Notes under the pieces: model-generated
Seen by the model: the letters and a program-made list of their open reading frames with translations, nothing else
What the model was told of the DNA's origin: nothing
The model's database searches: none
In this document: in pieces, positions 29,377 through 54,605 of the stretch
Numbering within the stretch: position 1 is the first letter of the stretch
How the letters are laid out: each line of letters opens with the position of its first letter
Origin: an uncultured candidate division Zixibacteria bacterium
GTDB lineage: Bacteria > Zixibacteria > MSB-5A5 > GN15 > PGXB01
Length of the DNA stretch: 64,000 nucleotides
NCBI GenBank assembly: GCA_963702205.1
Contig: OY969724.1
Location: 672,001-736,000, forward strand
Reading direction: 5' to 3'
Position numbers and translations under genes: made by a program

Positions 29377-30711
29377 ATGAGGGATTTGCCATCAGATGTG
29401 CGACCGATCAACAGGCTTAGCGGTCCTTTACTGCGCTTTCTGCACGTTGAGGCTGCGAGCGGATTGGTCCTTATTCTCGCGACCGTTTTGGCTTTAGTCG
29501 CTGCGAACACGTCCTTCAGGGACTCCTATACGCAATTCTGGAACCTGGATCTCACTCTGGGCATTGGGGAATGGGCGCTTTCTTATCCGTTATGGTACTG
29601 GGTCAATGACGGTCTCATGACGGTATTTTTCTTCCTGGTCGGTCTGGAAATCAAGAGGGAAATCGTATCTGGCGAGCTGAGGGAAGTCCGTAGATTAGTC
29701 TCGCCCGTGGTGGCTGCGCTAGGAGGCGCAGCTGTTCCAGCTGCAATCTATCTCTTCTTACTCGGTGATCAGCCGGGGGAGCACGGGTGGGCAATCCCTA
29801 TGGCTACAGACATAGCATTCGTTGTTGGCGCCCTTGTACTGCTGGGAAATCGAATCCCTCACGGGCTCAAAGTGTTCCTGCTGACTCTTGCGATAGTTGA
29901 TGACATCATAGCGGTTATAGTGATTGCGATCTTCTATTCAAACCAATTCAGCGTGATATGGTTAGCAGGCGCTATACTTGGACTGGCGGTCGTTGTGATC
30001 TTAAATAGAATCGGGGTGAGGACAGTCGTTGGGTATCTGGTCGTCGGCGCCGGCGTTTGGTTGTGCACTCTTAAGTCCGGAATTCACCCGACTATCTCGG
30101 GCGTTGCCTTGGGACTCCTTACCCCGGCGATTCCATTGATATCAAGAGCAGAACTTGGAAGAGGTTTGAAGCGAGCGACAGAGGCAATCGGTCTGGAGTC
30201 GACACCCAATGAAAGCGCGAAGTTGCGAGAGGTTATGGACAAAATGGCTTTCGTTACACGTGAATCGATATCTCCTTTGGAGAGATTCGAAGCCGATGTG
30301 CATCCCTGGGCAGCCTTTCTGATAATGCCGATTTTCGCTTTGGCAAACGCTGGTATCCCTTTTTCAGTTAGCGCAATATCATCTCCGATAGCCACCACCG
30401 TTGCTCTCGCTCTATTTCTCGGAAAGCCGGTAGGAATCGTATTGAGTCTCCTTTTGGTCGTGAAGACAAGATTGAGCATCATTCCCGGAGGCAGCAACTG
30501 GAGAGCTATCTTCGGTGCGGGATGTTTAGCCGGAATAGGATTCACGATGTCACTGTTCGTGGCGTCCCTTAGTCTTGATGGACAGCTTCTTGTTCAGGCA
30601 AAGGCCGGCGTTTTGATTGGTTCTGCTTTCTCCGCAGTAATTGGAACGGTGATTCTGGTAACGTCCCTCAAAACAAATGCTGGTCATAAGAAGGGGAAAC
30701 GATCAGTATGA
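29377..30711 (+). CDS. nhaA: Na+/H+ antiporter NhaA
   Basis: WVNDGLM, GLEIKRE, GWAIPMATDIAF, LAIVDD and AGIGFTMSLF motifs. Confidence 0.95.
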   Translation: MRDLPSDVRPINRLSGPLLRFLHVEAASGLVLILATVLALVAANTSFRDSYTQFWNLDLTLGIGEWALSYPLWYWVNDGLMTVFFFLVGLEIKREIVSGELREVRRLVSPVVAALGGAAVPAAIYLFLLGDQPGEHGWAIPMATDIAFVVGALVLLGNRIPHGLKVFLLTLAIVDDIIAVIVIAIFYSNQFSVIWLAGAILGLAVVVILNRIGVRTVVGYLVVGAGVWLCTLKSGIHPTISGVALGLLTPAIPLISRAELGRGLKRATEAIGLESTPNESAKLREVMDKMAFVTRESISPLERFEADVHPWAAFLIMPIFALANAGIPFSVSAISSPIATTVALALFLGKPVGIVLSLLLVVKTRLSIIPGGSNWRAIFGAGCLAGIGFTMSLFVASLSLDGQLLVQAKAGVLIGSAFSAVIGTVILVTSLKTNAGHKKGKRSV

Positions 30712-30809
30712 AGATCTGCAACCGGTTCGCAAACGTGACCCGCCCCCGTATTTCAATTCAGTTCTTATCCTGAATACGTATTGGTGGATCATCATTGCCC
30801 CTATCTCAG

Positions 30810-31025
30810 TGTGACCAAAACGTGACCAAAATGGTTACACGTTATTCGGTGTTATTGGGGGATATTGACTTGCAAACGCGGAGGTGGGGGGTACAATACC
30901 CCCGTCCGACTCGTAATCTATTGGATTATAATGAGTTATCTAAATGGAGGTGGGGGGAATCGAACCCCATACTCGCGTTGTGGCACAAGGACTTACACCC
31001 TATTGTGACCAAATTGTGACCGTTT
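30810..31025 (-). mobile_element. attP-like junction A: tmRNA 3'-end core (30945-30968) with TGTGACC arm repeats on both sides
   Basis: Minus-strand core GGGGTTCGATTCCCCCCACCTCCA; colinear 216-bp copy at 48709, offset 17,899 bp. Confidence 0.85.
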
Positions 31026-31111
31026 TTTCGCGAACTTGCGACTATCCGTATTGCCAGTGACAATGTCCCCACCCCAAGAGAACTGGATAGCAGCCCCCGC
31101 CGCATCTGGTA

Positions 31112-31780
31112 TCAGTTCTTAAGCATTCTGAGGAGAAAGAGATGTTGATTTCCCTGAATTACCGAAAGACGAAGGCCGACTCGAACACACAAATCCGAGA
31201 GTAGAGTCCTGCCTATATGAATCCAGCGGAATCCTGGTCCTTCTTTCTGCTTCCAAACCGGACACAGCCTAGTCGCCACAAACTTCTTTTGGGTCACTCT
31301 TCGCGCTATCACCAACACCTGGCCGTCGTCTTTCAGCAGCTTCGAGAGTTGTCTGAGCAGTCGCCTCGTCCCCTCCACCGAGCCGCCGATTCCGAGGCCG
31401 TTCCCCAGAAGTGTAATTGTGTCGTATTTCTCAGCTGTTAAAAAGGTGAAGATGTCGGCAGCCACGCAAGACTGGCAGCCAGCAATTCGAGCGACTTCTA
31501 TGACTTTTGGAGAAACGTCAATGCCAAGTACTTGTCCGCGATCGGCCAGTAATGGCAAGTAGTTGCCCGTGCCACAACCAACGTCCAGAATGTTGCCATG
31601 AGCCAGAGATATCAGTTTCCGTTCCATACCAGAGAGTTGCCCAGCTGTCCGAAAATATCTGCCTAAATCGACCTTAAACATCCTTCCGGAATTCTCCCTC
31701 AGGTAGAATGGCGACCTGTCTCCCCGTGAATAGGCCAGTAGAGCCTCCCCAAACACTTCCATCGATTGCTTTGCTGTCAT
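31112..31780 (-). CDS. Class I SAM-dependent methyltransferase
   Basis: ILDVGCGTG, GIDVS and YDTITLLGNG motifs. Confidence 0.88.
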   Translation of the reverse strand: MTAKQSMEVFGEALLAYSRGDRSPFYLRENSGRMFKVDLGRYFRTAGQLSGMERKLISLAHGNILDVGCGTGNYLPLLADRGQVLGIDVSPKVIEVARIAGCQSCVAADIFTFLTAEKYDTITLLGNGLGIGGSVEGTRRLLRQLSKLLKDDGQVLVIARRVTQKKFVATRLCPVWKQKEGPGFRWIHIGRTLLSDLCVRVGLRLSVIQGNQHLFLLRMLKN

Positions 31781-31871
31781 TAATCCCTCATAACTTCTAT
31801 GTTTTCACTGCGCCGGTGTGCTCGCAGCAGAGCAAATAGGAACAGTAAGAAAGCTGTCCCTTTCACTTCTG

Positions 31872-33437
31872 TCATTCCGCCAAAACCAGCTGCAGTTCGT
31901 TCACATAGACCACCCTTTTGTCTCGATTGGCAATAAACGCCCGCAACATGTAAGTAATATCGGGGAGCACCTTGGCGGCGATAATTGGCTGGCCGTCCAC
32001 GAACACCTGCACAGGTTTGGTCAAGTCAACCATGTCAGGTGATATCCTGATGGTCAAAGAACCAACTCGCGACGTCTGGAGTTCGAAGCGATTATTTTCA
32101 TATGAGGCCTTGATCACCGCCGACGGCTTCTCGCGCCGAAAGATATAGAAGGTCTTCGGCCGGGGCACTCTGCCATGGAGCGTAAGCAGACTATCTCCGC
32201 GCTTAACATCGATCCTAACCTCTGCCGCATATCTAAACGTCGCCTTCAATTTGCCTAGGTCAGCGCCACTATTGACCGTCACTCCGTTGCCACCTATAAT
32301 GATATCCGACGGCCGCACCCTAGCGTACCTCGCCACGAAATCCCCGTCTAGTACGGTGGCCACTCGCACGCCCGGAACGGTGCAGGTGTCGAACGTCATA
32401 ATCCCCAGTGACACAGTGCTGTCGATCAGTGCCACGTTGTAGTCGACATACCAGTCCGCGGGATCATCGATTGTCACATCATCAATCTTCAACCAGTGGC
32501 ACTCACCGTACTCGGGTGTTGCTGTCTCCCAATAGATAGCTTCTGGATAAGGACTGCGCGGATGTTGTTCAAGTGAATCCAATATCATCGCATAATCATA
32601 GGTTAATATGCTGGCAATGTGCTCGCCATCAAGTTGGTGGTGGTAAATATTGGCGCCTGCCTGCCGTGCCATACTGATCGCGCGCTGCATTTGTGATGTA
32701 GGGTAATACCTGTCTCGACTGGCCGTTGTGGCATAAACGTATGTGTTGCTCAGGTTAGGTGCATAAGTTGAGAAACCTCCATCTTCGCTACCGACACCCA
32801 TCGATCCGTTAAGAGCAGCATATGCGGCAAAATCATCGGGGCGAACCATGGCGTACAGGAACGCGGCAGAGGCACCGTCGGAGATTCCGCTCAAGAAGAC
32901 ACGATTGTCGTCGATATTGAAGTTCGACTTGAGCGCGCGAATTTGGGCCATCACGTTATCCATACCGACCCGGTCCCACCAGGTTGCTCCATCCTGACCA
33001 AAGGGAAAGAGAACCAGCCAACCGCGCTGCTCGGCAACCGACATGATAGCCGAGTCTCCAACGTACGTCTTCAAATCAGTTTCTATGTTTGGGCGACTAA
33101 CAATGCCGTGTAAATGGACCAGCAGTGGCGTCGCAATCCTGGGATTGTAGCCCGACGGCACGTAAAGGGCGTAAGGGCGAACGACACCGTCATCACACAA
33201 TGACTCTCCCCTAACGTCCTGCCCTTTCGTAGTATCAGGAAACGACAGCGACGTTAATTCAGCCATGACCGAGCGCCAGTTTAGCTGTGCCGTTTCAATC
33301 TGAACAATGAATGAATCCTGATTCACGCCGTCCGCAGAATTGATGAGTTCACTTAGCATGGTGTGCCAGTCTGCCGCCGAAGTAATCGGCGCTATTAACG
33401 ACAATAACCCAGCCACAATAGCTGCATATTTCTTCAT
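31872..33437 (-). CDS. Exported alpha/beta hydrolase (esterase/peptidase) with a PDZ-like insert
   Basis: Signal peptide; PLLVHLHG; GISDG nucleophile elbow; PGVRV..V...D.I...NG..V PDZ-like stretch. Confidence 0.72.
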   Translation of the reverse strand: MKKYAAIVAGLLSLIAPITSAADWHTMLSELINSADGVNQDSFIVQIETAQLNWRSVMAELTSLSFPDTTKGQDVRGESLCDDGVVRPYALYVPSGYNPRIATPLLVHLHGIVSRPNIETDLKTYVGDSAIMSVAEQRGWLVLFPFGQDGATWWDRVGMDNVMAQIRALKSNFNIDDNRVFLSGISDGASAAFLYAMVRPDDFAAYAALNGSMGVGSEDGGFSTYAPNLSNTYVYATTASRDRYYPTSQMQRAISMARQAGANIYHHQLDGEHIASILTYDYAMILDSLEQHPRSPYPEAIYWETATPEYGECHWLKIDDVTIDDPADWYVDYNVALIDSTVSLGIMTFDTCTVPGVRVATVLDGDFVARYARVRPSDIIIGGNGVTVNSGADLGKLKATFRYAAEVRIDVKRGDSLLTLHGRVPRPKTFYIFRREKPSAVIKASYENNRFELQTSRVGSLTIRISPDMVDLTKPVQVFVDGQPIIAAKVLPDITYMLRAFIANRDKRVVYVNELQLVLAE

Positions 33438-33580
33438 ATAATCTACCCTCGAGTCCGACGAGTCCTGTCTGTGGTAGATAGAATGTCAATCAATTCTCTG
33501 ATGCCTTCCTATACTCGAACCACTATGGACATGGTCGTTCCTGTCTTCCCCACATCAAGTTGGTCAGCACACTTGCACCA

Positions 33581-34096
33581 CTAGTCATATAGCCGCGAGC
33601 CCTTCTTTACAATTGGACAACTCACCCCATGAATAGTTCTGCGTGGCTCATTCCTATCGATCAGGTCTACTGTCCAGCCTTCTACCGAATACTCGACAAG
33701 CCTGAAATCGTAAACGTGTCCGGCTTCAGCATTGAAAGCGAACTTAAGACAGGCCTGATAAGCGCTACTCGGTAGAAATAGCTGACTAGTGGTACTCATA
33801 TCCCGTTTCGTCACCTGGCGCAATGTGAGTTGGTGGGAACCGGGGAGAAGCTCGAGCGTGTCTACGTAATCTATGTTCTCGGGTGTATCGCAATTGACCA
33901 CGAGCTTTTTCTCAAGACTCTCCAAATCATGCATTATGATGCGTGCAACCGCATCCGCCGGCTTTCTGGCGCCGTTCTCCGTTTCATACAGCACCCGCGT
34001 TCCGTGATACTCCCCCCCACATCCTACTGTCATTAAGGCAGTCAAAGACACGACCATGGAGAACGACGATTTGAGCCACTTCTTCCGTCTCTTCAT
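33581..34096 (-). CDS. Putative lipoprotein, paralog of 34452
   Basis: MKRRKK signal with TVGC lipobox; shares ARIIMHDL, DTLE.LPG.H and VEYS...W.VDLIDR.EP...IHG..CP with the paralog. Confidence 0.75.
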   Translation of the reverse strand: MKRRKKWLKSSFSMVVSLTALMTVGCGGEYHGTRVLYETENGARKPADAVARIIMHDLESLEKKLVVNCDTPENIDYVDTLELLPGSHQLTLRQVTKRDMSTTSQLFLPSSAYQACLKFAFNAEAGHVYDFRLVEYSVEGWTVDLIDRNEPRRTIHGVSCPIVKKGSRLYD

Positions 34097-34145
34097 CTCA
34101 CCCTCCCGAATTAACTCACACTTCACGGATTTGTAATCAATCGAT

Positions 34146-34346
34146 TCATCGACCTTCTTCCAGCTCGGCTGGCCAGTTGAGTACAACCTCGTATTCGGCC
34201 GGGGAGGCTTCGTGTGCCGCGGCCTTAATGATCACGAACTCCTGGCCGTCACTGGTCGCGTCGTAGCCGAAGTAGGTGTAACTTGCCGATTCGTCCTTCC
34301 AGCGCGGACGCACCTCCAGTGGAAATAGCTTCTGGGGCTTGCCCAA
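34146..34346 (-). pseudogene. C-terminal remnant of a sixth kinase-propeller gene
   Basis: PQKLF...GYDATSDGQEF...EVVLNWPAEL matches the C-termini of the genes ending at 35008 and 37699. Confidence 0.8.
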
Positions 34347-34451
34347 CCAGCAGAGTCGCGGCTCGGACTGTTAGAACGACCTTTGCGTTAGGCATATTAC
34401 CCTCTCCCCTCAAAACATTGTGTATCTGCCGCGTCCTGATTGTTTCCGGTG

Positions 34452-34955
34452 CTAGTCATATCTCCAGCCTACAAGGGGGCAGGTGGCGCCGTGGATGACT
34501 TTTTCCGGCTCCTGGCGGTCAATCAGATCGACTGCCCAGTTGCTGAATGAGTACTCGACCATCTTAAACTCGTACAAATGCCCCGACTTTACCTCGAACT
34601 TGAATAACCGGGCGGCCCGCGGGCTGCTCAACCAATAGGATACTTGTGACGAGCCGTGCAAGCTTTCTCGAAATAGAAGTCCCAGCACTATCCGGTGTGC
34701 TCCTGGGAGTACCTCAAGGGTATCTCTATAGTACACTGTCCGAGGGCCATCTACGATGATCACCAGATCTCTTTTGAGATTGCTCAGATCGTGCATGACA
34801 ATGCGTGCGACTTGATTTGCCGGCAGCCTTTCATCGCCGGGTTTTCCGTACATGACCTGTGTTTTGTGATAGTTCGTACCGCACCCCGCTACCAATTGGG
34901 TGACAAAGGCCACCAACATCAGCAGCACTACACTTCCGTACTTCTTCCGATTCAT
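34452..34955 (-). CDS. Putative lipoprotein, paralog of 33581
   Basis: MNRKK signal with LVAGC lipobox. Confidence 0.75.
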   Translation of the reverse strand: MNRKKYGSVVLLMLVAFVTQLVAGCGTNYHKTQVMYGKPGDERLPANQVARIVMHDLSNLKRDLVIIVDGPRTVYYRDTLEVLPGAHRIVLGLLFRESLHGSSQVSYWLSSPRAARLFKFEVKSGHLYEFKMVEYSFSNWAVDLIDRQEPEKVIHGATCPLVGWRYD

Positions 34956-35007
34956 TACCCTGCCCTCCTATATCGATTCGAACCTCACGGTTCACTGGTA
35001 CCTGAAG

Positions 35008-37699
35008 TTATCGAGCATATTCCAACTCCGCCGACCAGTTAAGGATGACTTCGATATCGCCGGCACTGCTCCCCTTCTCGTCATATGGTGTCACAAACAG
35101 AAACCGCTGACCGTCGTTCGAGACATCATACCCCCAGACAGTCGCAAGCGGGTCACGAATATACTCCCGCGTGAAAAGTAATTTAGGCGCGCTATATCGA
35201 AAGCCCTCCCTAAGGTCGAGCTGAACCGCCACAAAGTCGTTTCCCTCGAAAAAGAACAGCTCTTCTGTCGCCGGGCAAAAACGGGCCTGGGCGCCGGTGT
35301 GGGACAGGCACCATCGTCGCGCAGGTTGCTGCATATCGCAGACGAATATACGCCCCTCATTACTGTCTAACTGGTAAAGGAGATATCGGCCATCACCGAT
35401 TACCCCCCGCGCCCTGACAGGAGTGTGTAAAGAGCACTTCTCCTCTACCCTATCTGGGTCTTCCATTTGACGGACCAAGACGCGGCGACGAACGTCTGAC
35501 GATTCGTCGTGAAGATACTCGCACCACCAGAGCTTGTTAGAGGCGGACCAGCTTAATGGAATGAAATCAGACAAGCCGGATTCAATCGCCGTTTTCGGAA
35601 CCGGATCATCCAAGCGGCAGTACCGAATTGCGGCCACGTCCGACACGCCGTAGCCACAATACGCTACCGACTTTCCATCCGATGACCAGATCGGGAAATA
35701 CTCGGCTCCACTGTTTGAAGTCAGTCGGGATGCCACACCCGTCTCGGTGTAGAACACGCCTATTTTGAACTCTGATGCGGGCGACTCCCTGAAGCTGTAA
35801 GCTACTTTTTCATTGTCCGGGGAAAGTGAAATCTCACTATAGTAAACAGTTGGTCCCAGCGTATCCAATTCTCGTCCGCTCCGATCAACCCAGACCAGCT
35901 GGCTTGGTGCCAGCCTACTCTTCTGCAGCACGAGTATGTCGTTTTTCGACATGCCGGCACAGAAGTTCAAAGCGTCGTTCGAAATGAGCACGGCGTCTTT
36001 CGACTCCCGGACGGCAATCGGTTCCCCTTCGAACGCAAGAGACTTGAGATTGACCTGGCGCATGAACAAAGCGCCCTGCTGCAAGTAGAGAACCTGATCG
36101 TTGGGCGTGCATATCCCTTGGGAATTGGCCACGCCGAGTACGCGGTTGTCAACACCTTCTATATCCCCGATCTTCAGAGTGATCTCGTCGTCGTAGCCGC
36201 CCCACACCCGGGGCAGCGCTATGTAGACGAAATGACGCCCGTCGGACAGAAAGCTAGGCGTACCGGCGATTATCTCCCCCAGGCTGGTATCGGGACTTGT
36301 TGCCAGGGTAGGTTCGCCGCCAGAAGCAGAGACCTGGTAAATGGCGTGCGCGTCGTTGGGGTGATCATCGAATACGATCACATCCCGGCTACCCCAACTG
36401 CCGTCACCGCCGTTGGCTCGGCATATCAGTTGGGGCGAACCTCCGTCGGCCGCAACCTTCTTTAACTGTTTCCCTGCTTTGTCAAAATAGCCCAGGGTAC
36501 TTGCTATCGGGCGACCAGAAGGGGCGAAGAGCATCTGAAGTCCCGGGAAGAGGGAAAGCTACCGGTGAGTCGAGTGGTCGTACCCAGATCTGCGACCCGC
36601 CGGCGCTGTCGTAACCGGTAAACGCTAGAGATTTTCCATCGGGAGAGATCAATGGCATATTCATCCTGAGTATCCCCGGTGGCTTGGGAATTGTGAAACG
36701 AACGGTCCCCGCAGTGCGATCATCTTCCTTCAAAGCCCGTCCGCCAAGTATCAGCGCAATCAGGACACAGAGCGACGCCACACTCCACGCGACGGTCACA
36801 CCCCGCCGCCGTTTCGATGCCACCGGCGCCGGGATGCCCGCCTGTGACCCGGCCGAGGCGATCCACTCCAATTCATCTTTCAGATCGGCCGCTGATTGCC
36901 AGCGATCATCCGGGTCTTTTGCCAGACACTTCCGGATCAAACGATCAAGAGCCGGCGGAGAGGTCGGTTGAAGATCCGTTATAGAACGCGGCTCGTCCTT
37001 CATGATCGATCCGATCAAGCTCGCCCGGCTTGTCCCGGTGAAAGCTCGGCTTCCGGTTGCCATCTCGTACAGCACAGCGCCAAAAGAGAAGATATCGCTG
37101 CGTGGGTCTGCTTCCTTTGCCTCCAATTGTTCCGGCGACATATACTGCAGGGTTCCGACAATCGCCCCCGCTCCCGTTACGGGAGTGGTCTGTGTCTCCT
37201 CATTCATACCGACCACGGCTCCCGAGTGAAGTTTGGCCAGACCGAAATCGAGCAGCTTGGCGCCGTCCTTGGTTAGGAAGATGTTCCCCGGCTTGAGATC
37301 GCGGTGGACGACACCCTTGCGATGCGCCGCTTCCAGCGCGCCCGCCACCTGACTGCCGATTTCGAGGACTTTCGTGATGTCTAGTTTCCCTTTCACCAGG
37401 CGATCGGCGAGCGATTCCCCTTCCAGCAGTTCCATGACCAGGAAATAGACGCCGTTTTCATGCCCGATATCGTGCAGGGTGCAGATGTTCGGATGGTTCA
37501 GACTTGAGATAGTTTTCGCTTCACGTTCGAAACGAGCCCGGGCATCTTCATTCATCGCCGACTGTGGCGGCAGCACTTTGAGAGCCACCGTGCGACCCAG
37601 CCGCGTATCTGTTGCTTTGTACACTTCGCCCATGCCACCGGTCCCGGCGGGAGCGTCGATCTCATAAGACCCAAGCTTGTAGCCTTGTTCCAGACTCAT
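35008..37699 (-). pseudogene. Ser/Thr kinase-TM-beta-propeller (K5), split by a one-base frameshift at about 36495-36497
   Basis: Hanks motifs [15 protein letters not shown] and DFG; removing one C joins ...WSPDSKY to LGYFDKA...; WSPD/SPDG propeller repeats. Confidence 0.85.
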
Positions 37700-40395
37700 T
37701 ACTTCACTCCGAATTCTGTTTGCCAGTTGACGACTACCTCTATATCCCCAGTCGAATCGTCGGGCGAACTGACCGGGGCAACGAACAGAAATTTCTGGCC
37801 GTCGGAAGATATGTCATAACCCCAACGCGTAATCCACAAGTCTATCCACAGCTGACGGGTGAACAGCATCCTTGGAGTATCATGGTTAAACCCATCTTCT
37901 AGATTTTCGCTGACGACCATAAATTTGTCATCGTTGAAATAAAATATTTCATTTCCCATGGGGCTCCATTTTATTTTGTCTCCATTCTCGGTAATCCGCC
38001 ATCGAAGACCCGGGGTTGTCATGTCATATACGTAGAAGATTGGTCGCCGCAAGCCAATGATTTTCTGACAAAGCAGATATCGACCATCGGAAGATATATC
38101 ACGAGGGTTTAATTGTTCCGGAATCTCGAAGTAAAATTCAGGGGGGCTCGCTTGAGCCAGGTCAAATTTAAGTATCCGCCTGTTTCTTTGATATGGGGCG
38201 GGGTATTCACCAACCCACAATATATTTGAAGAAGACCATAATAACGGCACACATTCCGAAGAATCGGAAACCGCAAGTCTTCGGCTGCTGGCGTTACCAA
38301 GCCGGCAATATTCAATAGTGGTGGTATCACTCGCATGTCCGGCGAAGGCGATAGCAGATTCATCGGGCGACCAAACGGGGAAGAGTTCCTGATATTCATT
38401 GGCCGTGACGCGGACGTCTCGACCGCTTTTCAAATCAATGACCCCGATACGGAAGTCCTGCGTTTCAGAATGGCGCCCATGATATGCCACATATCGATTA
38501 TCCGGGGACAGCTTGATATCGCCGTAGATCGCGGGCTCTCCGATCGTATCCAATTCCCGGCCGTTTCTGTCCACCCAAACCAATTGCCCGAGTCTGGGAG
38601 GTCCCTTCTTCCACGCAATGATACCGTTTTGAGAGGCACTGGCATTCATTTGCATACCAGCCGATCGCGAAGAAGATATGGCCATTTCGGTTATCGGGAC
38701 GGGATCACCCTTCAACTCGAGCGAGCCGGTGTCAAACTTGTGCATGACCAAAAATCCATTCTTCAAATACATCAAGTAACCCGGTTCACAATAGATTGCC
38801 CTGACGCCTATTTTGCCAATTACTTTGGTTTCGTTATTATCTATACTGCCGGCTTTCAGGATCAAATCATCAGTTGACGAAGTCCATGACAGGGGTTGAT
38901 CGTTGTAAACGAAGTGCCGGCCGTCCGGCAGGAAACACGGCCAGGACACATATTTTTCACCAGACATGGAATCAGGTATTACCGCAATTGCCGGTTCACC
39001 GCCTGATATAGATGCCTTCCCAATTCCCACTCCATTAAAATCGTCGAACAAAATAATCCCATTTGTACCCCACGTACCATCGGCTCCGTCGGCTTTAAAC
39101 AAAATAATCGGCGGTCCACCCTCGATGGATACTTTCTTGAAGCAGCCATCAACGGCGTCGTAAAAAGCCAAACTCTTGCTGTCGGGTGACCAAAATGGCC
39201 GTCCTTGAGGATTAGGGGTCGATACAGTTGTACTTGGCAATCGATATGCTTCTGGATCCGCAAGCGGGCGTATCCATATCTGCGAAGTGCCCAGACTATC
39301 ATAACCCAGGAACGCCAGGTAGCGGCCGTCGGGAGAAATCTGTGGCCAGTCGACATCAACCACACCCTCTGGTTTGTGGATAGTGAAGCGGAAGCTCTGG
39401 GATGCCGGGCTCTTATGGGTCAACTGCTGCCAGCCGAGGGTCGCCGCGACAACAGCGAGCAGAGCGGCGGCGATCCACGCCGTTCGCAAACCTGCTTGTC
39501 GTTTCACCCTCAGCTTGAAAGCAGAAGAACTTCCGGACTCCAGCGAACGTCTGAAGCGCATCAAATCGGCCAGCATGCCGTCCGCGTGCTGATAACGAGT
39601 CTTTACATCTTTCTCGAGGGCTTTCTCGATGACAAACTGTAAACGATCCGGCAGACCCGCCTTGAAACGTGCCAACGGTTCCGGGAGATCATCGACCACC
39701 GCTTTCAGTGTAGCCGCCTCTGAATCGCGTTTGAACGGGTTCTGCTTGGTCAGAAGTTCGTACAGAACAACGCCGAGCGAGAAGAGGTCGCTGCGGTGGT
39801 CGACCTCCTGTCCCCGCACCTGCTCCGGCGACATGTAACCGACCGTACCCAAAGTCGAACCGGTCTTGGTTAGCTGCTCGGAACCCTGGATCGAGGCCAG
39901 ACCGAAATCGACAATGCGTACCCGTCCGTGGCTGTCTAACAGAATATTCGACGGCTTTATATCCCGATGGATAATACCCTTGTCATGCGCCGCCTGAAGA
40001 CCTTCGCACGCTTGTATTGCTATTTCTATGATCTTTTCAAGCGGCAGGTCTTTCCCGGCGATCACATCGCGCAGAGACCGCCCCTCGATCACCTGCATCG
40101 CAAAGAACGGCCGGCCATTGAATTCTCCGACTTCATAGATTGCAGCGATATTAGGATGATCTAGCCCGGCCGCGGCGTGGGCCTCGCGCGTGAAGCGTTT
40201 GCGGCAGTCGTCGTCCGGGCACAGATGAGGTGGCAGGAATTTTAGGGCGACTTTGCGATTGAGTTTGCTGTCCAGTGCCAGATAGACTTCCCCCATGCCA
40301 CCGGCACCGATTTTGTCGATGATGCGGTAGTGCCCCACCTCGGTGCCCGAGGTCAAGGAAACGTACGTGCGGGTCTTGTCGTCGTCAGATTGCAT
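37699..40395 (-). CDS. Ser/Thr kinase-TM-beta-propeller (K4)
   Basis: [11 protein letters not shown] and YMSPEQ motifs; one TM; ISPDG/WSPD (PD40/TolB-like) repeats. Confidence 0.92.
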
Positions 40396-40396
40396 G

Positions 40397-43048
40397 CTAC
40401 TTTTTCTCTTCTTCTGGATCGAATCGCCCTATCAACCAGACGTCGGAAGTGGTCGTCCCGGATACATAGACTATTGATTTGAAGTCAGGAGCTAGATCAA
40501 GAGTAACCTCGGCAAAAGGGCCAATACCAAACGGGAGAGTCATCAGGGTATCGACCAGTCTGGTTTTGATGTTTACACTACAGAGGTTGCTCGTCTCCCG
40601 GCTATAACGGTAATAGTAGATTAGCCGACCGTCGTCAGACCATAGCAGTGGGACCGCTCTGAAGATGCTATCCACAACAACTTGCCGCGGTTGGTCCCCG
40701 TTCAGCGACATAATCCAGATTCCATCCTCACTGTCCGGATATCGATTCCACATGACAGCTACCATCGATTTGTCCGGGCTCACATGGGGATTGAAGATCC
40801 AGCCGTTGGACTCCTCGTGAAGTAACTCGCGCTCGGTCCCGGTCTCGACGTCAACGCACATGATGTTCCGATTGCCGGGCTTCTGGTAGAGGATTTCTCC
40901 ATTCACACTCCAGTAGAGACCGAGTGAATAGAACGACGTCTCAGAAGAGGAGTAGCTTCGGGTCGTCCCTGTAGACAAGCTCAGTGTCCTCAGGTAATAA
41001 GCATTGCCGTCCTCTGAATGCAGGTACGCTAGAAACTCACCGTCCGGCGACCAGACCGGGCTGTTGTTGCAGGCGCCGTCGAAAGTCAGGCGCTCGGATT
41101 TTCCTCCTTCCATGGACACGCGGTAGACGTCCATCCGGCCATCTTTGAGCATCGTGTAAGCGACCGACTTGCCGCTAGGCGAGATAGCCGGTTGGTCAAC
41201 CAACGCTGTTCCGGAAGTGAGCTGAAGTGTCGGTGCTATGCCGTTACGATCGACGGCAGCTCGAAGAAGATTGGAGGTGGCCAATCTGCGGTTGTAAAGC
41301 AGACTCTTGTTGTCGCTGGCGACTGAAAAGCTGATCGCGGTCAAATCAGGCATAACGGTTTGCGGTTGGCCCGCACGATTCCCGTTCCTGGGGTCTATCC
41401 TCACCTTCATCAAGGATTTTCCGCCAACCATGTTATCCTGGAGATAGTATATTGCGTCGCCTGATGCCGACCAGCGTGCCGTCGAAAAATCTCCCTCGCA
41501 AATCTTGACCCCTTTACCTCCGGTGACCGGCACAGTCCACAGGGCGTTCATCACTGAGCCATTGCTTGTCAACAGGAACAGGTTACCTTTTGGAGACCAA
41601 TCAAGGTTATCTACCCATTCTCGCTCGACGTCGATCGGTATGGGTGAGGAGGTTTGAGACAGGAGATCATAGACCAGAATGGTGTCGCCCTTTCGGCAGC
41701 TGTTATGCTTCGCTACTCGATTGCCATCGGGAGACCAGGCCAGGGCCAAACTGCCGCAGACACCGCCGGGCAGGCGCCGGGATGCGCCACCGAGCCTTGG
41801 CAGAATAAAGCAGGCATTGAGGGAGTCCCCCCAGCAACATGTGGCGATAGTCGCGCCGTCGGGCGACCATCGGAATCCCATCATGTAATCGCTTTCTAAC
41901 AGCTGTACCGCGTTACCTCCATGAAAATCGGCGACGTACAGACATTCTTTCCCGTTGATCTGCCGTGACGCTGCGTAGAAGGAGCCATCGGGGGAGATTT
42001 CGCACTTCTCCACGTCTCCGAAGTAAGTGATCTGACGTTGGGTGTACTGCGGTGTGGATCCGTTTCTATCGGAGTCCAGGAGTTGAAACGCGAAAAACGC
42101 GAGGACCGCGACTGCCAATATGATCAAGGCTGAAAGGGCGAACCGGTGCGATCGCGCCCTGATTGGCAACTTGGCCGTATGCTCTCCCGAATCGGAAATC
42201 CGTTTGATCCGCACTAGATCTGCCTTGATGTCATCCGCGTGCTGGTAGCGGGTCTTGACATCTTTGTCCAGGGCCTTGTCAAGGATCGGCTGGAGTGAGT
42301 CCGGCAAGTTCACGCGGTATCTGGCGGCCGGATGGGGGAGATCGTCACTCACCGCTTTCAACGTCGCCGCTTCAGAATCGCGCTTAAACGGGTTCTGCTT
42401 TGTCAGCAACTCGTACAGAACAACCCCAAGGGAAAACAGGTCGCTGCGGTGGTCGACCTCCTGCCCCCGCACCTGCTCCGGCGACATATACCCGACCGTC
42501 CCTAGTGTCGAACCGGTTTTCGTGAGTTGCTCGGAACCCCGAACCGATGCCAGCCCAAAGTCGACGATGCGCACGCGACCGTGACTGTCGAGGAGCACAT
42601 TGGATGGCTTGATATCCCGATGAATGATCCCCTTGTCATGAGCCGACTGCAGCCCCTCACAAATCTGAATGGCTATCTCCAGGATGCGGTCTATTGGCAG
42701 GTCTTTGCCCGCAATCACTTCCCGCAGCGACTGCCCCTCGACAATCTGCATTGCGAAGAACGGTCGGCCGCTGTGCTCGCCCACTTCATGAATAGCCGCA
42801 ATGTTCGGATGATCGAGCCCCGCTGCGGCCTGAGCTTCACGGGTAAATCGCTTGCGGCAATCCTCATCCTGACACAGATGCGGTGGCAGGAATTTTAGGG
42901 CGACTTTGCGATTGAGTTTGCTGTCCAGTGCCAGATAGACTTCCCCCATGCCACCGGCACCGATTTTGTCGATGATGCGGTAGTGCCCCACCTCGGTACC
43001 GGATACCAGGTGAACGTGAGTACGGGTCCTGTCGTCGTCAGATTGCAT
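40397..43048 (-). CDS. Ser/Thr kinase-TM-beta-propeller (K3)
   Basis: Same kinase motifs; TM; many WSPDG repeats. The ATG at 43048 aligns with the paralog starts. Confidence 0.92.
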   Translation of the reverse strand: MQSDDDRTRTHVHLVSGTEVGHYRIIDKIGAGGMGEVYLALDSKLNRKVALKFLPPHLCQDEDCRKRFTREAQAAAGLDHPNIAAIHEVGEHSGRPFFAMQIVEGQSLREVIAGKDLPIDRILEIAIQICEGLQSAHDKGIIHRDIKPSNVLLDSHGRVRIVDFGLASVRGSEQLTKTGSTLGTVGYMSPEQVRGQEVDHRSDLFSLGVVLYELLTKQNPFKRDSEAATLKAVSDDLPHPAARYRVNLPDSLQPILDKALDKDVKTRYQHADDIKADLVRIKRISDSGEHTAKLPIRARSHRFALSALIILAVAVLAFFAFQLLDSDRNGSTPQYTQRQITYFGDVEKCEISPDGSFYAASRQINGKECLYVADFHGGNAVQLLESDYMMGFRWSPDGATIATCCWGDSLNACFILPRLGGASRRLPGGVCGSLALAWSPDGNRVAKHNSCRKGDTILVYDLLSQTSSPIPIDVEREWVDNLDWSPKGNLFLLTSNGSVMNALWTVPVTGGKGVKICEGDFSTARWSASGDAIYYLQDNMVGGKSLMKVRIDPRNGNRAGQPQTVMPDLTAISFSVASDNKSLLYNRRLATSNLLRAAVDRNGIAPTLQLTSGTALVDQPAISPSGKSVAYTMLKDGRMDVYRVSMEGGKSERLTFDGACNNSPVWSPDGEFLAYLHSEDGNAYYLRTLSLSTGTTRSYSSSETSFYSLGLYWSVNGEILYQKPGNRNIMCVDVETGTERELLHEESNGWIFNPHVSPDKSMVAVMWNRYPDSEDGIWIMSLNGDQPRQVVVDSIFRAVPLLWSDDGRLIYYYRYSRETSNLCSVNIKTRLVDTLMTLPFGIGPFAEVTLDLAPDFKSIVYVSGTTTSDVWLIGRFDPEEEKK

Positions 43049-45689
43049 CGGGCCTCCCGTACTTTGCAACTAGGGCCCTGTACCTGGGATCATCGCGCAC
43101 CGGGTCAAGTCGCGGATCGAGTTCCAAACACCCGATACGTACTGCACTAGGGATCGTGAACAGGTACTCGAATTCGCTCAACGCCGCGTCATAGTCTCCG
43201 ACCGCCAGATACACGTAAGCGAGATTCTCCCGATACTGAGGCCCAAAGAACGCGTCCAACTCGACCGGATACATCTCCACAGCTTTTATGATTGAGGCTA
43301 TGGCCTCCGATCTCCGTCCCAAACCCGCGAGTGCATATCCCATTGTGGCATAGAACCGTCCGTCCTGCGGGTGTTCTTTGATACGAACGTCAAGCAGCAT
43401 CCTGGCTGAATCGTACATAGCGTGAGCCTCCTGCGCGCGGCCCTGAAGTCTGAATATCTCCGCCACCATAAGTTGACGAGGGAAATAGACGAAGCCGCCG
43501 TCGTACTCGGTGAATTCCGGCTTCACTAGCGACTCGAGAGCACAGTCGTAGTCACGTTCGTAAAGGAACTGCAGGAACCACATGTCGAGGTTGTCTTCAT
43601 CTATCCCCATCTTCTCGAGGTAGTGGCGGGCCAACGCGAGTCCGCCCGGTCTATTCCAGGCGGGTACAATCAGGTAATTGTATGCCCACGTCATTCCGGG
43701 GTCGACGGCGAGCGACAACTCCGCATAATAGGAAGCGGCAGAATCATCACGAAGCAGAAAGCAGCTCGCCGCAAGTTCCGCCATCAGGAGCGCGTCGCGA
43801 GGATCCATTTTGAGAATTTCTTCGAGTCGTTCCCGCGACCGTACGTGCTCCCCCTGCCGGCGCCATACAAAAGCAACTGCCTGCAGGATCCGCGGATTCC
43901 AGGGCGCCAAGCGCTCGGCGCGGTGGAATTCTTCAATTGCCTTATCATACTCTCTGAGACACCAGTAGTAGTAGAAGCCCATCGCCTCGTGTGCCTCAGC
44001 CAGTGATGAATCGAGCGCCAGCGATCTCGATGCAGCGTCCTCCGCCTTTGCCCTAGTAGACTGTGTCTTCTCCCAGTTAAGGTACAGCCAGGAATACTCC
44101 ATGGACAGCTCGGCCCAGGCGCGCGCAAACTGAGAGTCCTGCGCCACGCACTCCTCAAGAGCCTCAATACACTGCTCGGCGACCTGCCTGATCGGGTTGC
44201 CGCGCGACAGCGTCAAGCCGCGGAGAAAGGCGAGGTAAGCCTCCGTGTTTTCCGTCCCACCCGATTCAAAGCGCGCCCTGTCTGATTCAAGCAATATCGC
44301 GCCCAACGCCAACGCCACGTTCTCCGCGATCTCACTTTGCACTGCGAAGATCCCTGATAGCGTCCGCTCATAGCCCGCAGACCAGAGATGCAAATCATCG
44401 GAGACCTTGATCAGCTGCGGCGTGATTCGCACCAGGCGTTCCCCTTTTGTCTTGTCCCAGCGAATCGTCCCTTCCAGGATGTAGCTCACCCCCAGTTCGT
44501 GGGCAATCTGCGGCAGTGCCTTGGTCGTCCCTTTGTAGGTCATGCAACTTGTCCGCGAGACAACACCCAGACCGCGGATTGTGCTCAGCTTGGAGATCAA
44601 CTCATCAGTCATGCCATCGGCGAAATACTCTTCCTCCGGATCGCTCAGATTCTCGAACGGTAGTACGGCAAGCTTGATCTTGCCCGGCTGCTTATCGGCA
44701 TCACCCGACGACCACGGTTTTGTCCTCACCAGGACGACCGCCAAGGCAACAACGACCGACGTGAACAACAACAACCACACCCATGGCGCTCGACGAGCCG
44801 CTGCAGTATCCTTCTTGATCGAGTTCGTGTGTTCCAAGTCCCGCCCGACCTTCATTAGGTCGGCCTTAAGATCATCCGCATGCTGGTAACGGGTTTTGAC
44901 ATCTTTCTCCAGCGCCTTGTCGAGAATAGTCTGGAGTGAGTCCGGCAAGTTCACACGGTATCTGGCGGCTGGATGAGGGAGATCGTCACTCACGGCTTTC
45001 AGCGTAGCCGCCTCGGAGTCGCGCTTGAAGGGGTTTTGTCTGGTGAGCAGTTCGTAGAGGACGACCCCGAGAGAGAAGAGATCACTCCGGTGGTCAACTT
45101 CCTGACCCCGCACTTGCTCCGGCGACATGTAACCGATCGTCCCCAAAGTCGAGCCGGTCTTGGTGAGTTGTTCAGAGCCATGGACAGAGGCCAGTCCAAA
45201 GTCGACGATCCGTACCCTCCCGTGAGAATCAAGCAGGACATTGGAAGGTTTTATATCCCGATGAATGATCCCCTTATCATGAGCGGCCTGGAGGCCCTCG
45301 CATACCTGTATAGCGATTTCCAGTATCCGCTCAATCGGCAAATCTTTCTCGGCGATCACCTCCCGGAGGGACTGCCCCTCCACCACCTGCATGGCGAAGA
45401 AAGGCTGGCCCTGATATTCGCCGACTTCGTAGATAGCGGCGATGTTAGGGTGATCCAGCCCGGCCGCGGCGTGGGCCTCGCGCGTGAATCGCTTGCGGCA
45501 ATCCTCATCCTGACACAGATGCGGTGGCAGGAATTTTAGGGCGACTTTGCGATTGAGTTTGCTGTCCAGTGCCAGATAGACTTCCCCCATGCCACCGGCA
45601 CCGATTTTGTCGATGATGCGGTAGTGCCCCACCTCGGTGCCCGAGGTCAAGGAAACGTACGTGCGGGTCTTGTCGTCGTCAGATGGCAT
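43038..45689 (-). CDS. Ser/Thr kinase-TM-TolB_N-like-TPR (K2)
   Basis: Kinase domain; TM; LAVLPFENL...EYFADG.T; TPR repeats. Confidence 0.92.
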   Translation of the reverse strand: MPSDDDKTRTYVSLTSGTEVGHYRIIDKIGAGGMGEVYLALDSKLNRKVALKFLPPHLCQDEDCRKRFTREAHAAAGLDHPNIAAIYEVGEYQGQPFFAMQVVEGQSLREVIAEKDLPIERILEIAIQVCEGLQAAHDKGIIHRDIKPSNVLLDSHGRVRIVDFGLASVHGSEQLTKTGSTLGTIGYMSPEQVRGQEVDHRSDLFSLGVVLYELLTRQNPFKRDSEAATLKAVSDDLPHPAARYRVNLPDSLQTILDKALEKDVKTRYQHADDLKADLMKVGRDLEHTNSIKKDTAAARRAPWVWLLLFTSVVVALAVVLVRTKPWSSGDADKQPGKIKLAVLPFENLSDPEEEYFADGMTDELISKLSTIRGLGVVSRTSCMTYKGTTKALPQIAHELGVSYILEGTIRWDKTKGERLVRITPQLIKVSDDLHLWSAGYERTLSGIFAVQSEIAENVALALGAILLESDRARFESGGTENTEAYLAFLRGLTLSRGNPIRQVAEQCIEALEECVAQDSQFARAWAELSMEYSWLYLNWEKTQSTRAKAEDAASRSLALDSSLAEAHEAMGFYYYWCLREYDKAIEEFHRAERLAPWNPRILQAVAFVWRRQGEHVRSRERLEEILKMDPRDALLMAELAASCFLLRDDSAASYYAELSLAVDPGMTWAYNYLIVPAWNRPGGLALARHYLEKMGIDEDNLDMWFLQFLYERDYDCALESLVKPEFTEYDGGFVYFPRQLMVAEIFRLQGRAQEAHAMYDSARMLLDVRIKEHPQDGRFYATMGYALAGLGRRSEAIASIIKAVEMYPVELDAFFGPQYRENLAYVYLAVGDYDAALSEFEYLFTIPSAVRIGCLELDPRLDPVRDDPRYRALVAKYGRPDAI

Positions 45690-48360: not shown

Positions 48361-48421
48361 GGGTAGTATCCCCTTATCAGACGAGCAGCATTATGATGTC
48401 GATCTAGGAAGCAGTCTCCTG

Positions 48422-48607
48422 CTACTCCTGTTTCGATCGCTTCGTTTCACCTGATCTTTCGACCTCACGTCGGATAAGATCGTTGACAAATCGCTGAATC
48501 GTTGTATCCCGGTGAGCGACTAGTATCCGTAGTTGTTTATGAGTTTCTTCGTCAAGTCGAACGTGAACCATCGGGCCACGATAGCCCGAATCGGATGATC
48601 TTGCCAT
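48422..48607 (-). CDS. Small ribbon-helix-helix (CopG/Arc-like) protein, copy 1
   Basis: RGPMVHVRLDEETHKQLRILVAHRDTTIQRFVNDLIR: beta-strand plus two helices. Confidence 0.8.
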   Translation of the reverse strand: MARSSDSGYRGPMVHVRLDEETHKQLRILVAHRDTTIQRFVNDLIRREVERSGETKRSKQE

Positions 48608-48631
48608 GACAACTCTCCACAACTAATTGTC

Positions 48632-48669
48632 TGGATACAAATATAGCCAACTCTCAATATCCCAGTCAA
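48632..48669 (-). promoter_or_regulatory. Sigma70 promoter with a palindromic operator over the -10 box
   Basis: Minus strand TTGACT-18-TATATT; plus strand TGGATACA-AA-TATAGCCA (two mismatches). Confidence 0.7.
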
Positions 48670-48708
48670 GAATAATCGACTTGTCAGTCGCTATTGCTGT
48701 TGTTCTGT

Positions 48709-48924
48709 TGTGACCAAAATGTGACCAAGACGGTGTTACGTTATTCGGTGTTATTGGAGGATATAGGCTTACAAAGTCAGGGGTGGGGGGTTATATACCC
48801 CCGTCCGGCTCGTAATCCATTGGATTGTAATGAGTTATACAAATGGAGGTGGGGGGAATCGAACCCCATACTCGCGTTGCTGCACAAGGACTTACACAGT
48901 ATTGTGACCAAATTGTGACCGTTT
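48709..48924 (-). mobile_element. attP-like junction B: tmRNA 3'-end core (48844-48867) with arm repeats
   Basis: Colinear copy of 30810-31025. Confidence 0.85.
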
Positions 48925-48976
48925 ATTCTATGTCTTCGATGTTCTCATATGAACATATTTGTTAGATAGTAAATCT

Positions 48977-51900
48977 CTATTCATACTTTTTAATAATATC
49001 GTAGAGCGGCTTTATTTGTTCAGAAAGTTGAGTCATATTGTGCTGGATTGCAAGATTGAATGCTTCGTTAATATCTGGGACAGCTCTTTTTGGTTCATTC
49101 ATGTTTACTGCTAATAGGTACGCCTTATTCGAGAGAATCATCACCAAATCCTCTACATTCTCTATTTCACGACTGACAGACTCAGACTCCTCAAACAATT
49201 CTAATGATTTATCAAAGTTACCCCGTGCTATAAATATTCGTCCTTGATTGCTAAGACTGCTCAGAAGGCCTTTTTTATTTCCCAATACAAGGCAAATACT
49301 CTCTTGCTGCTTTAACAATGTCATGGCTTCACCAAATTCACCACGCGAATAGAGTATATTTGCTTGATTACCAAAACAGAATTGTAAGCCATCCTTGTTC
49401 CCTAACTCTATACAAAGACGCTCCTGTTTCTTATTCAATATCATTGCTTGTTCAAGTTCTCCTTTATCAAAAAGAATCAATGCTTGTTGACTGAAGCAAA
49501 ATTGTAAGCTATCCTTGTCCTCTAATTCTTCACAAAGATGTTCCAGTTCTTCATACAATTTCATTGCTTCATCACATTTACCAATGCAAGAAAGAATTGA
49601 TGCGCGTCTCATAAGAGACCTTACAAGGCCATTTGTATTGCCTAATTCCTTACAAATACGCTCCTCTTCTTTATGAAGCTTCATTGCCTCATCAAGATCA
49701 CCTCGATCATTCAGAATCAATGCTTGATTACCAAGAGATGCTGCTAATCCATTGTTAAGGCCTAAATCTCTGCAAATTTGTTCCTGGTCCCTATATAGTT
49801 TCATTGCCTCGTCAAGTTCACCTAGTTCTTTAAGAATTATTGCTTGATTACCGAAGGTTCGTTGCAAGCCATCCTTATTGCCTAACTGCTTACAAATACG
49901 CTCCTCTTCTTTATGAAGCTTCATTGCCTCGTCAAGTTCACCTCGTTCCTGAAGAATTATTGCTTGATTACCGAAGGTTCGTTGTAAGCCATCCTTATTG
50001 CCTAACTCCTTAAAAATACGCTCCTCTTCTTTATGAAGTTTCATCGCCTTATCAAGATCACCACGATCTTTCAGAATCAATGCTTGATTACCAAGAGATA
50101 TTGCTAATCCATTTCTAAGGCCTAAATCTCTGCAAATTTGTTCCTGGTCCCTATATAGTTTCATTGCCTCGTCAAGTTCACCTCGTTCCATAAAAATTAT
50201 TGCTTGATTACCGAAGGTTCGTTGTAAGCCATCCTTATTGCCTAACTCCCTACAAACACGCTCCTCTTCTTTGTGTAATTTCATAGATTCATCTAATTCA
50301 CCCCGGGAAAATAGCACATTAGCCTGGTTTCCAAGACATATTTGTATGCCATCTTTGTCCCCTAACTCTCTACAAAGACTTTCTTGCTCTTTATACAATG
50401 TCATTGCTTCATTGAATTCACAAAGTAAATAATGTAGGGATGCCTGGTTACCTAGACAGGAAGAAAGCAAAGGTCTGTTTCCTAACTCTATACAAAGATG
50501 CTTCTGAGACATATGTAATATCATAGCCTCATCATATTCACCCCAATCTTTTAATATTATTGCCTGATTACCAAGAGATCTTGATAATCCGTTTTTATCG
50601 CCTACTTCTTTACAAAGATCCTCCTGCTCTTTATTTAATTTCATTGCTTCATTTAGTTCACCACGTGAATAATAACTCCAACCTTGATTACCGAGGCATT
50701 CAGATAGTTTCTGTTTATTCCCAATATTTCTAAAATGATTCACTAAATAACTCCTTAACTCTAAAGCTTCATCTGGATGTCCGGTATCTCCAAGGAGTTT
50801 GCCAACTTCCCAGATATAATCTTGATATAGTGTAGGAGCATCTAATACCGGTTTATATGCATCAATGAGTCTAAGTGGTGACTTATTTTCAATAGATGCC
50901 CAGTAGGTTTTAACCTCATATTCGTCTTTAACCCATGCTATTGCGAAAAATTCTAAATCAATTAACAGATTATAAAGCTTTTGCCATGCTTCGGTCTGCC
51001 GATATTGCCACGGAAGTTCATCAACTTTATGAAGGGTAAGTTCTTTTTGCTCAAAGTAACCAGCCAGTTCAAGATGAGATTGTTTCTGCTCTTCTTCTAA
51101 TGACAGATATTTATTCTGCACCGCCTGTCTCATGTAATCATGTGCAAAACTTATCAAGCCCGAATGGCTCATTAACGATTGTTCCGCCGCCAAATGTAAT
51201 GGCGACCAGATTGCCTGAGGAAGCGGTTCTTCTTTAGGGTTAAGTATCTCCAAAAGTTCTGCCTCTGATAGGCCGCGCCTGGATGCCCAAATAGCCGTCA
51301 TCGCATCACGAACAAGGCCGGGACGTTCACGTTCATAATCTTTCTCATAGCGCTCAAGAACTTGTTCGTATAGTTCTTCTATATTTGCCGCCTCAAGATA
51401 ATAATCAATCTGCTTATCAAGGGTAAAATGTTCACCCCATTGGCGAAGTTCATCAAGAAGTGCTTTCAAATAAAGCGGATTGGATGTCTGCTTTGCGTTT
51501 GCGATACGATTCGCTGGATCGGCTTCCAGTGCTTTGGTGTACAACCCTAAAAACCTGACAATGAAAGTCGCTCGCTCAGGCTCTGTCAACGGCTCCACTT
51601 GCATACTCGGCCAGTTACGTTTATTCAAATCATCAAGTGGACGGCCAGGCAGAGTCGACAGAATCAATCTAACGTTCTCCGGTATCTCCGGTGGCAGCCA
51701 GACAAGATCCAAGGCTTGATCTCTATCTTCAAGCTGGTTTAAGGCGTCAAGAACAATAACTATTTTACCGCGTGCCGCCGCCATATGAAGCCAATTGGCA
51801 AAAGCCATACGGAGCTCATCGGGTTTGTCAGGGATATCACCCTGAATATCAAACCGACGCTTAAATTCACCCATGATCCTCATGAGCATAGCCGCCCAAT

Positions 51901-54370: not shown

Positions 54371-54541
54371 TGAGAATAAACGGAGGGTCTTCGAAAACTG
54401 AATTCAATAGTATCTATCGTCCCCCGAGATTCATTCGTGTCCCCCCAAGGAATTGCCTTCTTCTTCACATTTGCGCTTTGTTAGTTGATTTTGTAATCTG
54501 TTGTGTTACAGAGGATTACGAAATGAGTTGGCGGACTGAAA

Positions 54542-54605
54542 AATCGAACCCCATACTCGCGTTGTGGCACAAGGACTTACACCCTATTGTGACCATATTG
54601 TGACC
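54542..54605 (-). mobile_element. Hybrid att junction C: right arm plus the 7-bp overlap only
   Basis: Matches junction A from AATCGAACCCC through the TGTGACC pair (one mismatch); unrelated to A to the left of this. Confidence 0.8.

Follow-up and report, generated by a model that had tools for sequence, protein, structure and literature searches.

T-arm mimic hairpins in the P' arms of tandem genomic islands at ssrA in a Zixibacteria genome

Introduction

Tyrosine-integrase elements with attP or attL sites at the T-loop of a tRNA or tmRNA gene (for instance the attP core of phage Ms6; PMC1762012, cited here from parts of the account) share with the locus described in this study a T-arm core in which the stem halves form inverted half-sites, a 7-nt loop as the likely overlap, direct-repeat arm sites on both sides, and an element that supplies the 3' end of the target gene. 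According to the same parts of that account, the 7-base T-loop of the Ms6 attP core acts as the site of strand exchange, and slight alterations of this loop shift the target. The tandem ssrA islands of Dehalococcoides (PMC3146451, likewise cited in part) resemble the present locus in that several islands stand downstream of a single ssrA and are bounded by repeats of its 3' end, and also in that some of these islands, or accretion cis-mobilizable elements, are without recombination genes and may move with a neighbour.

Islands inserted at tRNA or tmRNA genes must rebuild the gene end, block strong transcription into the island genes and offer binding sites for the recombinase. Here we describe a hairpin, hereafter referred to as the mimic, that copies the T-arm of ssrA (the tmRNA gene) shortly past the att core in an array of tandem islands of an uncultured Zixibacteria bacterium, together with its conservation in related genomes and the readings of its role.

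Organization of the island array

The ssrA gene (genome 770790-771148, minus strand; 188 bits) is located 35 kb beyond the end of the window, by which we mean the whole 64,000-nucleotide stretch of DNA analysed (genome 672001-736000), and the window sits within three tandem islands downstream of this gene. The array, defined by core copies together with arm repeats, runs from ssrA as attL plus int1, island 1, junction B, island 2, junction A, island 3 and a terminal half junction, the junctions being at genome 770.8, 720.8, 702.9 and 671.5 kb. The int1 gene encodes a 336-aa tyrosine integrase (Phage_integrase domain, E 6e-32) and gave the only int1-like match between genome 671.5 and 770.8 kb; none of the 52 ORFs of the window carries a recombinase Pfam domain. 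The islands with mimics have att junctions on both flanks, no recombinase of their own and an integrase-bearing element in the same array, and are classified as candidate cis-mobilizable elements. If the islands entered ssrA one after another, as is usual, each mimic would be part of the P' arm of its downstream island, which would place the two copies in the integrase-less islands 2 and 3.

Island 1 (about 50 kb) carries a STAND NTPase and helicases. A further P arm was found inside this island (window 54540-54605, minus strand; GGTCACAATATGGTCACAA ... GAGTATGGGGTTCGATT), which matches junction B at 92%, stops exactly after the 7-nt T-loop and continues into unrelated DNA; given this broken internal P arm, island 1 looks composite, and the place of the break is consistent with strand exchange in the T-loop or right beside it. 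Island 2 (about 18 kb) begins with a small ribbon-helix-helix-like gene followed by five Ser/Thr kinases, and in this region (36482-48607, minus strand) the five kinases are paralogous, with PD40 or TPR repeats. The 61-aa product of the small gene matched no family, and its homologue in a related genome (G003) matches RHH_10 and Antitox_RHH below the Pfam cut-offs. The same combination of an RHH gene and large kinases was observed 3' of the mimic arm in G003 and G026 (loci L076 and L079). Island 3 (about 31 kb, window 1-30700) is the outermost and ends in the half junction 489 bp before the start of the window. Its cargo includes 6PGD, 6-phosphogluconolactonase, PGI, phosphoketolase, acetate kinase and glycogen phosphorylase together with a P-type ATPase, a hibernation factor, baeRF, CdaA and NhaA, and no recombinase; these genes for central carbon metabolism and dormancy are unusual cargo for an ssrA island. 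Elsewhere in the same genome, a second element (308958-310231) shows a tRNA-like match, inverted GGTCACAATATGGTCACAG arm repeats and an integrase 29% identical to Int1.

The features of the two junctions in the window, both of which are full junctions with a P arm (GGTCACAATTTGGTCACAA), a core and a P' arm, are as follows, in the order in which the minus strand is read.

Junction A
31003..31021, minus strand: P-arm direct repeats, putative arm-type integrase sites, GGTCACAATTTGGTCACAA
30946..30968, minus strand: true att core copy, GGGGTTCGATTCCCCCCACCTCC, no CCA encoded
30908..30945, minus strand: conserved 38-nt trailer from core to mimic, ATAACTCATTAYAAT.CAATRGATTAC
30880..30907, minus strand: T-arm mimic A, GGAC-GGGGG / TATTGTA / CCCCC-CACCTCC, assigned to the P' arm of island 3; fold -15.8 kcal/mol, z -0.89
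30809..30856, minus strand: P' arm with AATAACACCGAATAAC (30841-30856) and GGTCACGTTTTGGTCACAC (30809-30827)

Junction B
48902..48920, minus strand: P-arm direct repeats, GGTCACAATTTGGTCACAA
48845..48867, minus strand: true att core copy, a copy of the core sequence
48807..48844, minus strand: conserved 38-nt trailer from core to mimic, the same trailer as at junction A
48779..48806, minus strand: T-arm mimic B, GGAC-GGGGG / TATATAA / CCCCC-CACCCC, assigned to the P' arm of island 2; fold -14.2 kcal/mol, z -1.28
48708..48755, minus strand: P' arm with AATAACACCGAATAAC (48740-48755) and GGTCACATTTTGGTCACAA (48708-48726)
48422..48607, minus strand: 61-aa ribbon-helix-helix-like gene, first of island 2, with promoter-like TTGACT-18-TATATT at 48669-48640

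The order of elements in the P' arm is trailer, mimic, TTTGYAAG, two copies of AATAAC and two of GGTCAC. This conserved trailer contains AWWCAAYRGMTTAC, which may resemble the IHF consensus; in trailer copy B a small palindrome, TAATCCAATGGATTA, was observed. The CCA of the ssrA end supplied by the island is encoded in some arms (CCTCCA-TTT) and not in others (CCTCCACCA), and most of the mimic-type arms that adjoin a real ssrA are without an encoded CCA, as read by eye from the alignment. Antisense 74-aa ORFs span both junctions on the plus strand (30795-31019 and 48694-48918); these were rejected as genes after the frame was found free of stops in only 9 of 43 homologous arms.

T-arm mimics in the window

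On the minus strand, mimic A (30907-30880) reads GGACGGGGG-TATTGTA-CCCCCCACCTCC and mimic B (48806-48779) reads GGACGGGGG-TATATAA-CCCCCCACCCC. The initial annotation of this DNA had pointed to a second copy of the T-arm past each core, and both hairpins were indeed located there, the mimic starting at each junction 38 nt past the CCA end of the true core copy. A search of the window with GGACGGGGG-N7-CCCCCCACC (<=2 mismatches) gave two matches, namely mimics A and B, against an expectation of 0 from 100 shuffles, while GGGGG-N7-CCCCCCACCYC occurs at only three sites in the whole 3.98-Mb genome, the two mimics and the T-arm of the real ssrA. The 3' end of the latter reads TTTTCGGACGGGGGTTCGATTCCCCCCACCTCCACCA, also given as CGGACGGGGGTTCGATTCCCCCCACCTCCACCA. 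The flanks of the mimic agree with the attB expected from ssrA, including the GGAC which the junction cores lack (these read GAGTATGGGG-TTCGATT), in agreement with the earlier description. The mimic is built of an inner G5/C5 helix, a 2x2 internal loop and an outer GG/CC helix, and has the form of a core site, with inverted half-sites GGACGGGGG and CCCCCCACC (reverse complement of the latter, GGTGGGGGG) separated by 7 nt.

The overlaps TATTGTA and TATATAA both differ from TTCGATT of ssrA and of all junction cores, so that identity with a recombination partner is lost. As a functional T-arm the mimic fits in stem and in loop length but has a loop without TTC; no 5' acceptor partner was detected upstream of either copy, and in the window ARAGORN found no tRNA or tmRNA gene and Rfam gave no matches. 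The loops of mimics A and B are unlike at 3 of 7 positions, and the description of the loop as replaced and differing between copies holds to this extent; across homologues, however, the loop is not free but follows the consensus TATTATA.

The sequence of the loop raises the possibility of a promoter on the opposite strand, from which transcripts would run to the core and on to ssrA. Read on that strand, the consensus loop becomes TATAATA and the conserved TTTGTAAG gives TTACAA 16 nt upstream; TTGCAA-16-TACAAT at 30870-30897 (plus strand) shows 9 of 12 matches, and loop positions 2, 3 and 6, which are kept best, fall on A2, A5 and T6 of a -10 hexamer. An A/T-rich loop yields such matches easily, however, and promoter-like sites are common (19 found against 13.7 expected); the -35 element is poorly matched, copy B has TTATAT or TATATA instead, and the transcript would be antisense to ssrA and to the genes of the neighbouring island. 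We therefore regard a promoter at this site as very improbable.

Conservation among related genomes

A blastn search with junction B gave matches in 147 of 160 genomes of the order, many of which span only the conserved core or the P arm. When the P' arm without the core served as query, 55 of 285 genomes of the phylum gave a match, 10 of them outside the order. The ssrA 3' end itself was matched (<=2 mismatches) in 121 of the 160 genomes of the order, and is identical in the other orders seen. Homologous arms were aligned as one set of 43 (A1) and then as a set of 38 main-group arms (A2). In the main group 36 of 38 arms have the first stem G 44 nt from CCA, and 37 have a 7-nt loop; there are 21 loop variants, with TATTATA as the consensus (9/38) and none equal to TTCGATT. 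The arm with the mimic is spread over 20 families of the phylum at about 68% mean column identity, and in at least 10 genomes, G003, G041 and G115 among them, the mimic lies directly 3' of a functional ssrA. In a metagenome scan with an anchor that leaves out the hairpin, 19 of 20 loci carried the mimic. Outside the phylum, the all-species scan (one genome per species; 37 matches, 24 of them unrelated) found the pattern only in unrelated sequences such as T-arms of tRNA-Gly read backwards, coding DNA and G+C-rich hairpins.

The earlier expectation that the flanks should vary less than the loop was borne out by half: the top residue is held in 30-38 of 38 arms at the stem columns and in 21-35 at the loop columns, with an arm-wide mean of 31.9 of 38, so that the stem is only slightly above the average of the arm, loop positions 4, 5 and 7 are below it and the rest of the loop is close to it. 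The strongest conservation in the arm lies outside the mimic, in the motifs TATAT, CAATA and GAATAA.

Two loci, L198 on a metagenome contig and L134 in a related genome (G104:C35), have the TTCGATT core fused straight to the downstream flank of the mimic, and are without the 66-bp unit and the tmRNA acceptor strand; these fusions are likely deletions between core and mimic. The 3' sides of both units, core and mimic, have TTTGTA in common, and this sharing together with the two fusions suggests that the mimic arose long ago by duplication of the ssrA end. Such a duplicate might be a neutral relic without function, persisting through recent horizontal spread of the arms, in which the loop drifted since a live second core would be harmful. 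The closeness of the stem columns to the arm mean is consistent with this possible but somewhat doubtful reading, and so are the lack of a covariation signal, the 17 unpaired cells of the inner helix (see below) and the fusions of L198 and L134, as expected from deletion between direct repeats, which are costly to keep. Against it stand the spread of the arm over 20 families at the identity given above, a hairpin potential in 51 of 57 arms, and hairpins of different sequence at the homologous place in sister arms.

The initial annotation had also proposed an orthogonal landing site, at which other elements would integrate through the 7-bp overlap of the mimic itself, and inverted half-sites with a 7-bp spacer are indeed the architecture of a core site. 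Yet no insertion at the mimic was detected in the 43 aligned arms or in the 12 junction-context matches of the all-species scan: a core or core remnant stands upstream, at a fixed distance in 43 of 43 arms, and likewise in all 12 of these matches, in which the upstream sequence is visible, and no solo or split mimic was found at any island boundary. The loops differ within one array (TATTGTA and TATATAA here, three loops in the array of genome G154), share a consensus and form no matched pairs at island ends, and outside the phylum the pattern occurs only in unrelated DNA. Integration of other elements at the mimic is thus already close to refuted.

Another reading is that the mimic is an accessory attB-like site, a pseudo-core or decoy, in which GGACGGGGG and CCCCCCACC, set 7 bp apart, represent the B and B' half-sites of ssrA: a helper integrase would bind the half-sites, and the dead overlap would block strand exchange. 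Binding might recruit or hold the integrase on islands that have none, or regulate assembly at the true core 66 bp away. The flanks agree with attB even outside the stem pairs (left, CGGAC; right, CACC), the spacer is 7 in 37 of 38 arms at a fixed distance from the core, and the two unpaired bases of CCCCC-CA-CC are retained, the C in 36 and the A in 35 of 38 copies. The right half-site is also kept in arms that lost the hairpin, and in one subgroup the right half is an exact inverted copy of the B half-site. Perfect G5-N7-C5 was found in 18 of 28 internal junctions, in 6 of 10 copies beside a real ssrA and in 6 of 19 junctions with a degenerate left side, indicating that retention of the mimic tracks intact att junctions rather than adjacency to ssrA, as an integrase site would. 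None of the six int1-like genes found across the collected loci adjoins a mimic arm, the window ORFs are without a recombinase Pfam domain, and in the Ms6 attP core (PMC1762012, in the parts cited) the T-loop behaves as the site of strand exchange. On the other hand, the arm beside the only integrase of the array has neither the mimic nor CCCCCCACC, which indicates that the integrase family does not need the mimic in cis; in addition, unrelated hairpins replace the mimic in sister arms, and the conservation of the stem is barely above the arm average. Judged from this pattern of sequence conservation, a role of the mimic in integrase binding appears possible, though we hold it with some doubt.

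Hairpin folding and terminator-like properties

The suggestion that the mimic is a terminator hairpin for the restored ssrA was supported in one respect and not in others. A stable G+C-rich hairpin does lie 38 nt after the ssrA-type 3' end, but its z score is only -0.89 for mimic A and -1.28 for mimic B, neither of them folding better than dinucleotide shuffles. No U-tract follows within 0-2 nt of the stem, the tails being ACCTCCGCGTTTGC and ACCCCTGACTTTGT, of the form ACC(Y)(Y)TGCC-TTTG, and the mimics are absent from the 26 terminator-like sites called in 30001-50000. The inner helix is paired in 90.7% of cells among the main-group arms, with 17 unpaired cells and many copies with stem mismatches; covariation was not significant in this group, since 56 of 500 shuffles reach the observed number of paired cells and 103 of 500 the covariation score. 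Wobble pairs gave small counts, 6 G-U cells against about 4 A-C cells, the latter read by eye from the alignment. When the arms were collected with an anchor free of the hairpin, 51 of 57 folded at -8 kcal/mol or better in the hairpin window, as compared with 37 and 21 of 57 in control windows, which are however lower in G+C.

Different hairpins were found at the homologous place in sister arms. The int1-type arm of the same genome carries a canonical terminator, AAGTGCC..GGCACTT-TTTG (fold z -2.25), immediately ahead of the shared segment TTTG...AATAAC, while in a subgroup of seven arms the right arm CCCCCGTCCC pairs perfectly with GGGACGGGGG, with folds down to -28.5 kcal/mol. The arm of G098 has GGAGA/TCTCC with one compensated pair, that of G033 the unrelated hairpin ACTGGATG/CATCCCAGT, and that of G055 a GGCGC...GCGCC pairing read by eye, of which the computed fold pairs only a part. 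Some ssrA loci with other downstream sequences likewise show, by eye and uncounted, a hairpin within about 70 nt of the gene end. Four ssrA-proximal arms (L098, L099, L108 and L181) keep TATACCCCCCACC after loss of the G5 arm, pointing to a constraint on sequence as well as on structure.

The mimic was also considered as a generic type of terminator of this taxon, and this was rejected: G5-N3-9-C5 occurs at only 11 sites in the genome (three tRNA-type T-arms with the loop TTCAAAT, ssrA, the two mimics and five others), and G6-N7-C6 only once in five related genomes. Canonical terminators are in use in this genome, for instance after the flagellin gene. At the end of the flagellin gene in the relatives G019 (L014) and G031 (L016), we observed a mimic-like hairpin, CCGGTGGGGGG-(6-7 nt A/T loop)-CCCCCC(A/G)CCGG, without a T-run.

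Discussion

The mimic has a defined anatomy, is conserved in related genomes, keeps a fixed position past the core, and is matched in sister arms by different hairpins at the homologous place. With high confidence, we regard it as a T-arm paralogue that is dead for recombination and forms a conserved part of the P' arm in a family of ssrA islands which is restricted to one phylum and many of whose members lack an integrase. Its role is graded lower. Our preferred reading, put forward tentatively from comparison of sequences, is that the mimic may be an old duplicate of the ssrA 3' end, retained where the restored ssrA gives way to the genes of the island as an insulator or RNA-end hairpin; we infer both the origin by duplication and the function at the RNA level. 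A diverged duplicate comprising the T-arm and the start of the acceptor strand would have been built into the P' arm of the island, and with the T-loop, the presumed 7-bp region of strand exchange, replaced, this copy could not recombine with ssrA. The two-part hairpin would then have been retained between the ssrA end supplied by the island and the first, co-directional island gene, where it could act in weak termination, as a barrier to exonuclease, or in insulation from read-through of ssrA.

A bolder form of the integrase-site reading takes the mimic as bait, an attB look-alike with a dead overlap by which integrase-less satellites would capture the integrase of a helper in trans. An IHF-like bend in the trailer might lay the mimic beside the true core, so that four integrase protomers could assemble on one DNA arm, before or instead of synapsis. 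We consider this unlikely, but if it is true, satellites would have a new means of competing for a helper recombinase or of regulating it.

With the mimic, the arm forms one compact module, in which a reused copy of the target may serve to stop transcription or to bind the recombinase. A hairpin that binds integrase would be a natural decoy core that does not recombine, with a bearing on how integrase-less islands borrow the enzyme of a neighbour and on how orthogonal att sites are designed; if the mimic is no more than a hairpin at a transcript end or a relic, it would be an ordinary detail of att-site evolution in a little-studied phylum.

We know of no described attP with such a pseudo-core, and a narrow literature search found no report of a second T-arm copy in an attP; the parts of the Ms6 (PMC1762012) and Dehalococcoides (PMC3146451) accounts used here make no mention of one. 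Unlike the attP of the Ms6 type, as far as those parts describe it, the present P' arm contains a second T-arm, complete and attB-like but with a loop that does not match, whose centre lies 66 bp from that of the true core. The Dehalococcoides islands, according to the parts cited, employ serine recombinases and a 20-bp repeat, whereas a tyrosine integrase, an extra T-arm copy and long arms with GGTCAC and AATAAC repeats are found here. With an intrinsic terminator supplied by an island, the mimic shares a G+C-rich hairpin 38 nt past the gene end and ahead of co-directional island genes, and a sister type of arm has a canonical terminator at the homologous place; the mimic differs in the lack of a U-tract within 0-2 nt and in a stem sequence that copies the T-arm. 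As compared with these known systems, the mimic represents a modest new variant of att-site architecture.
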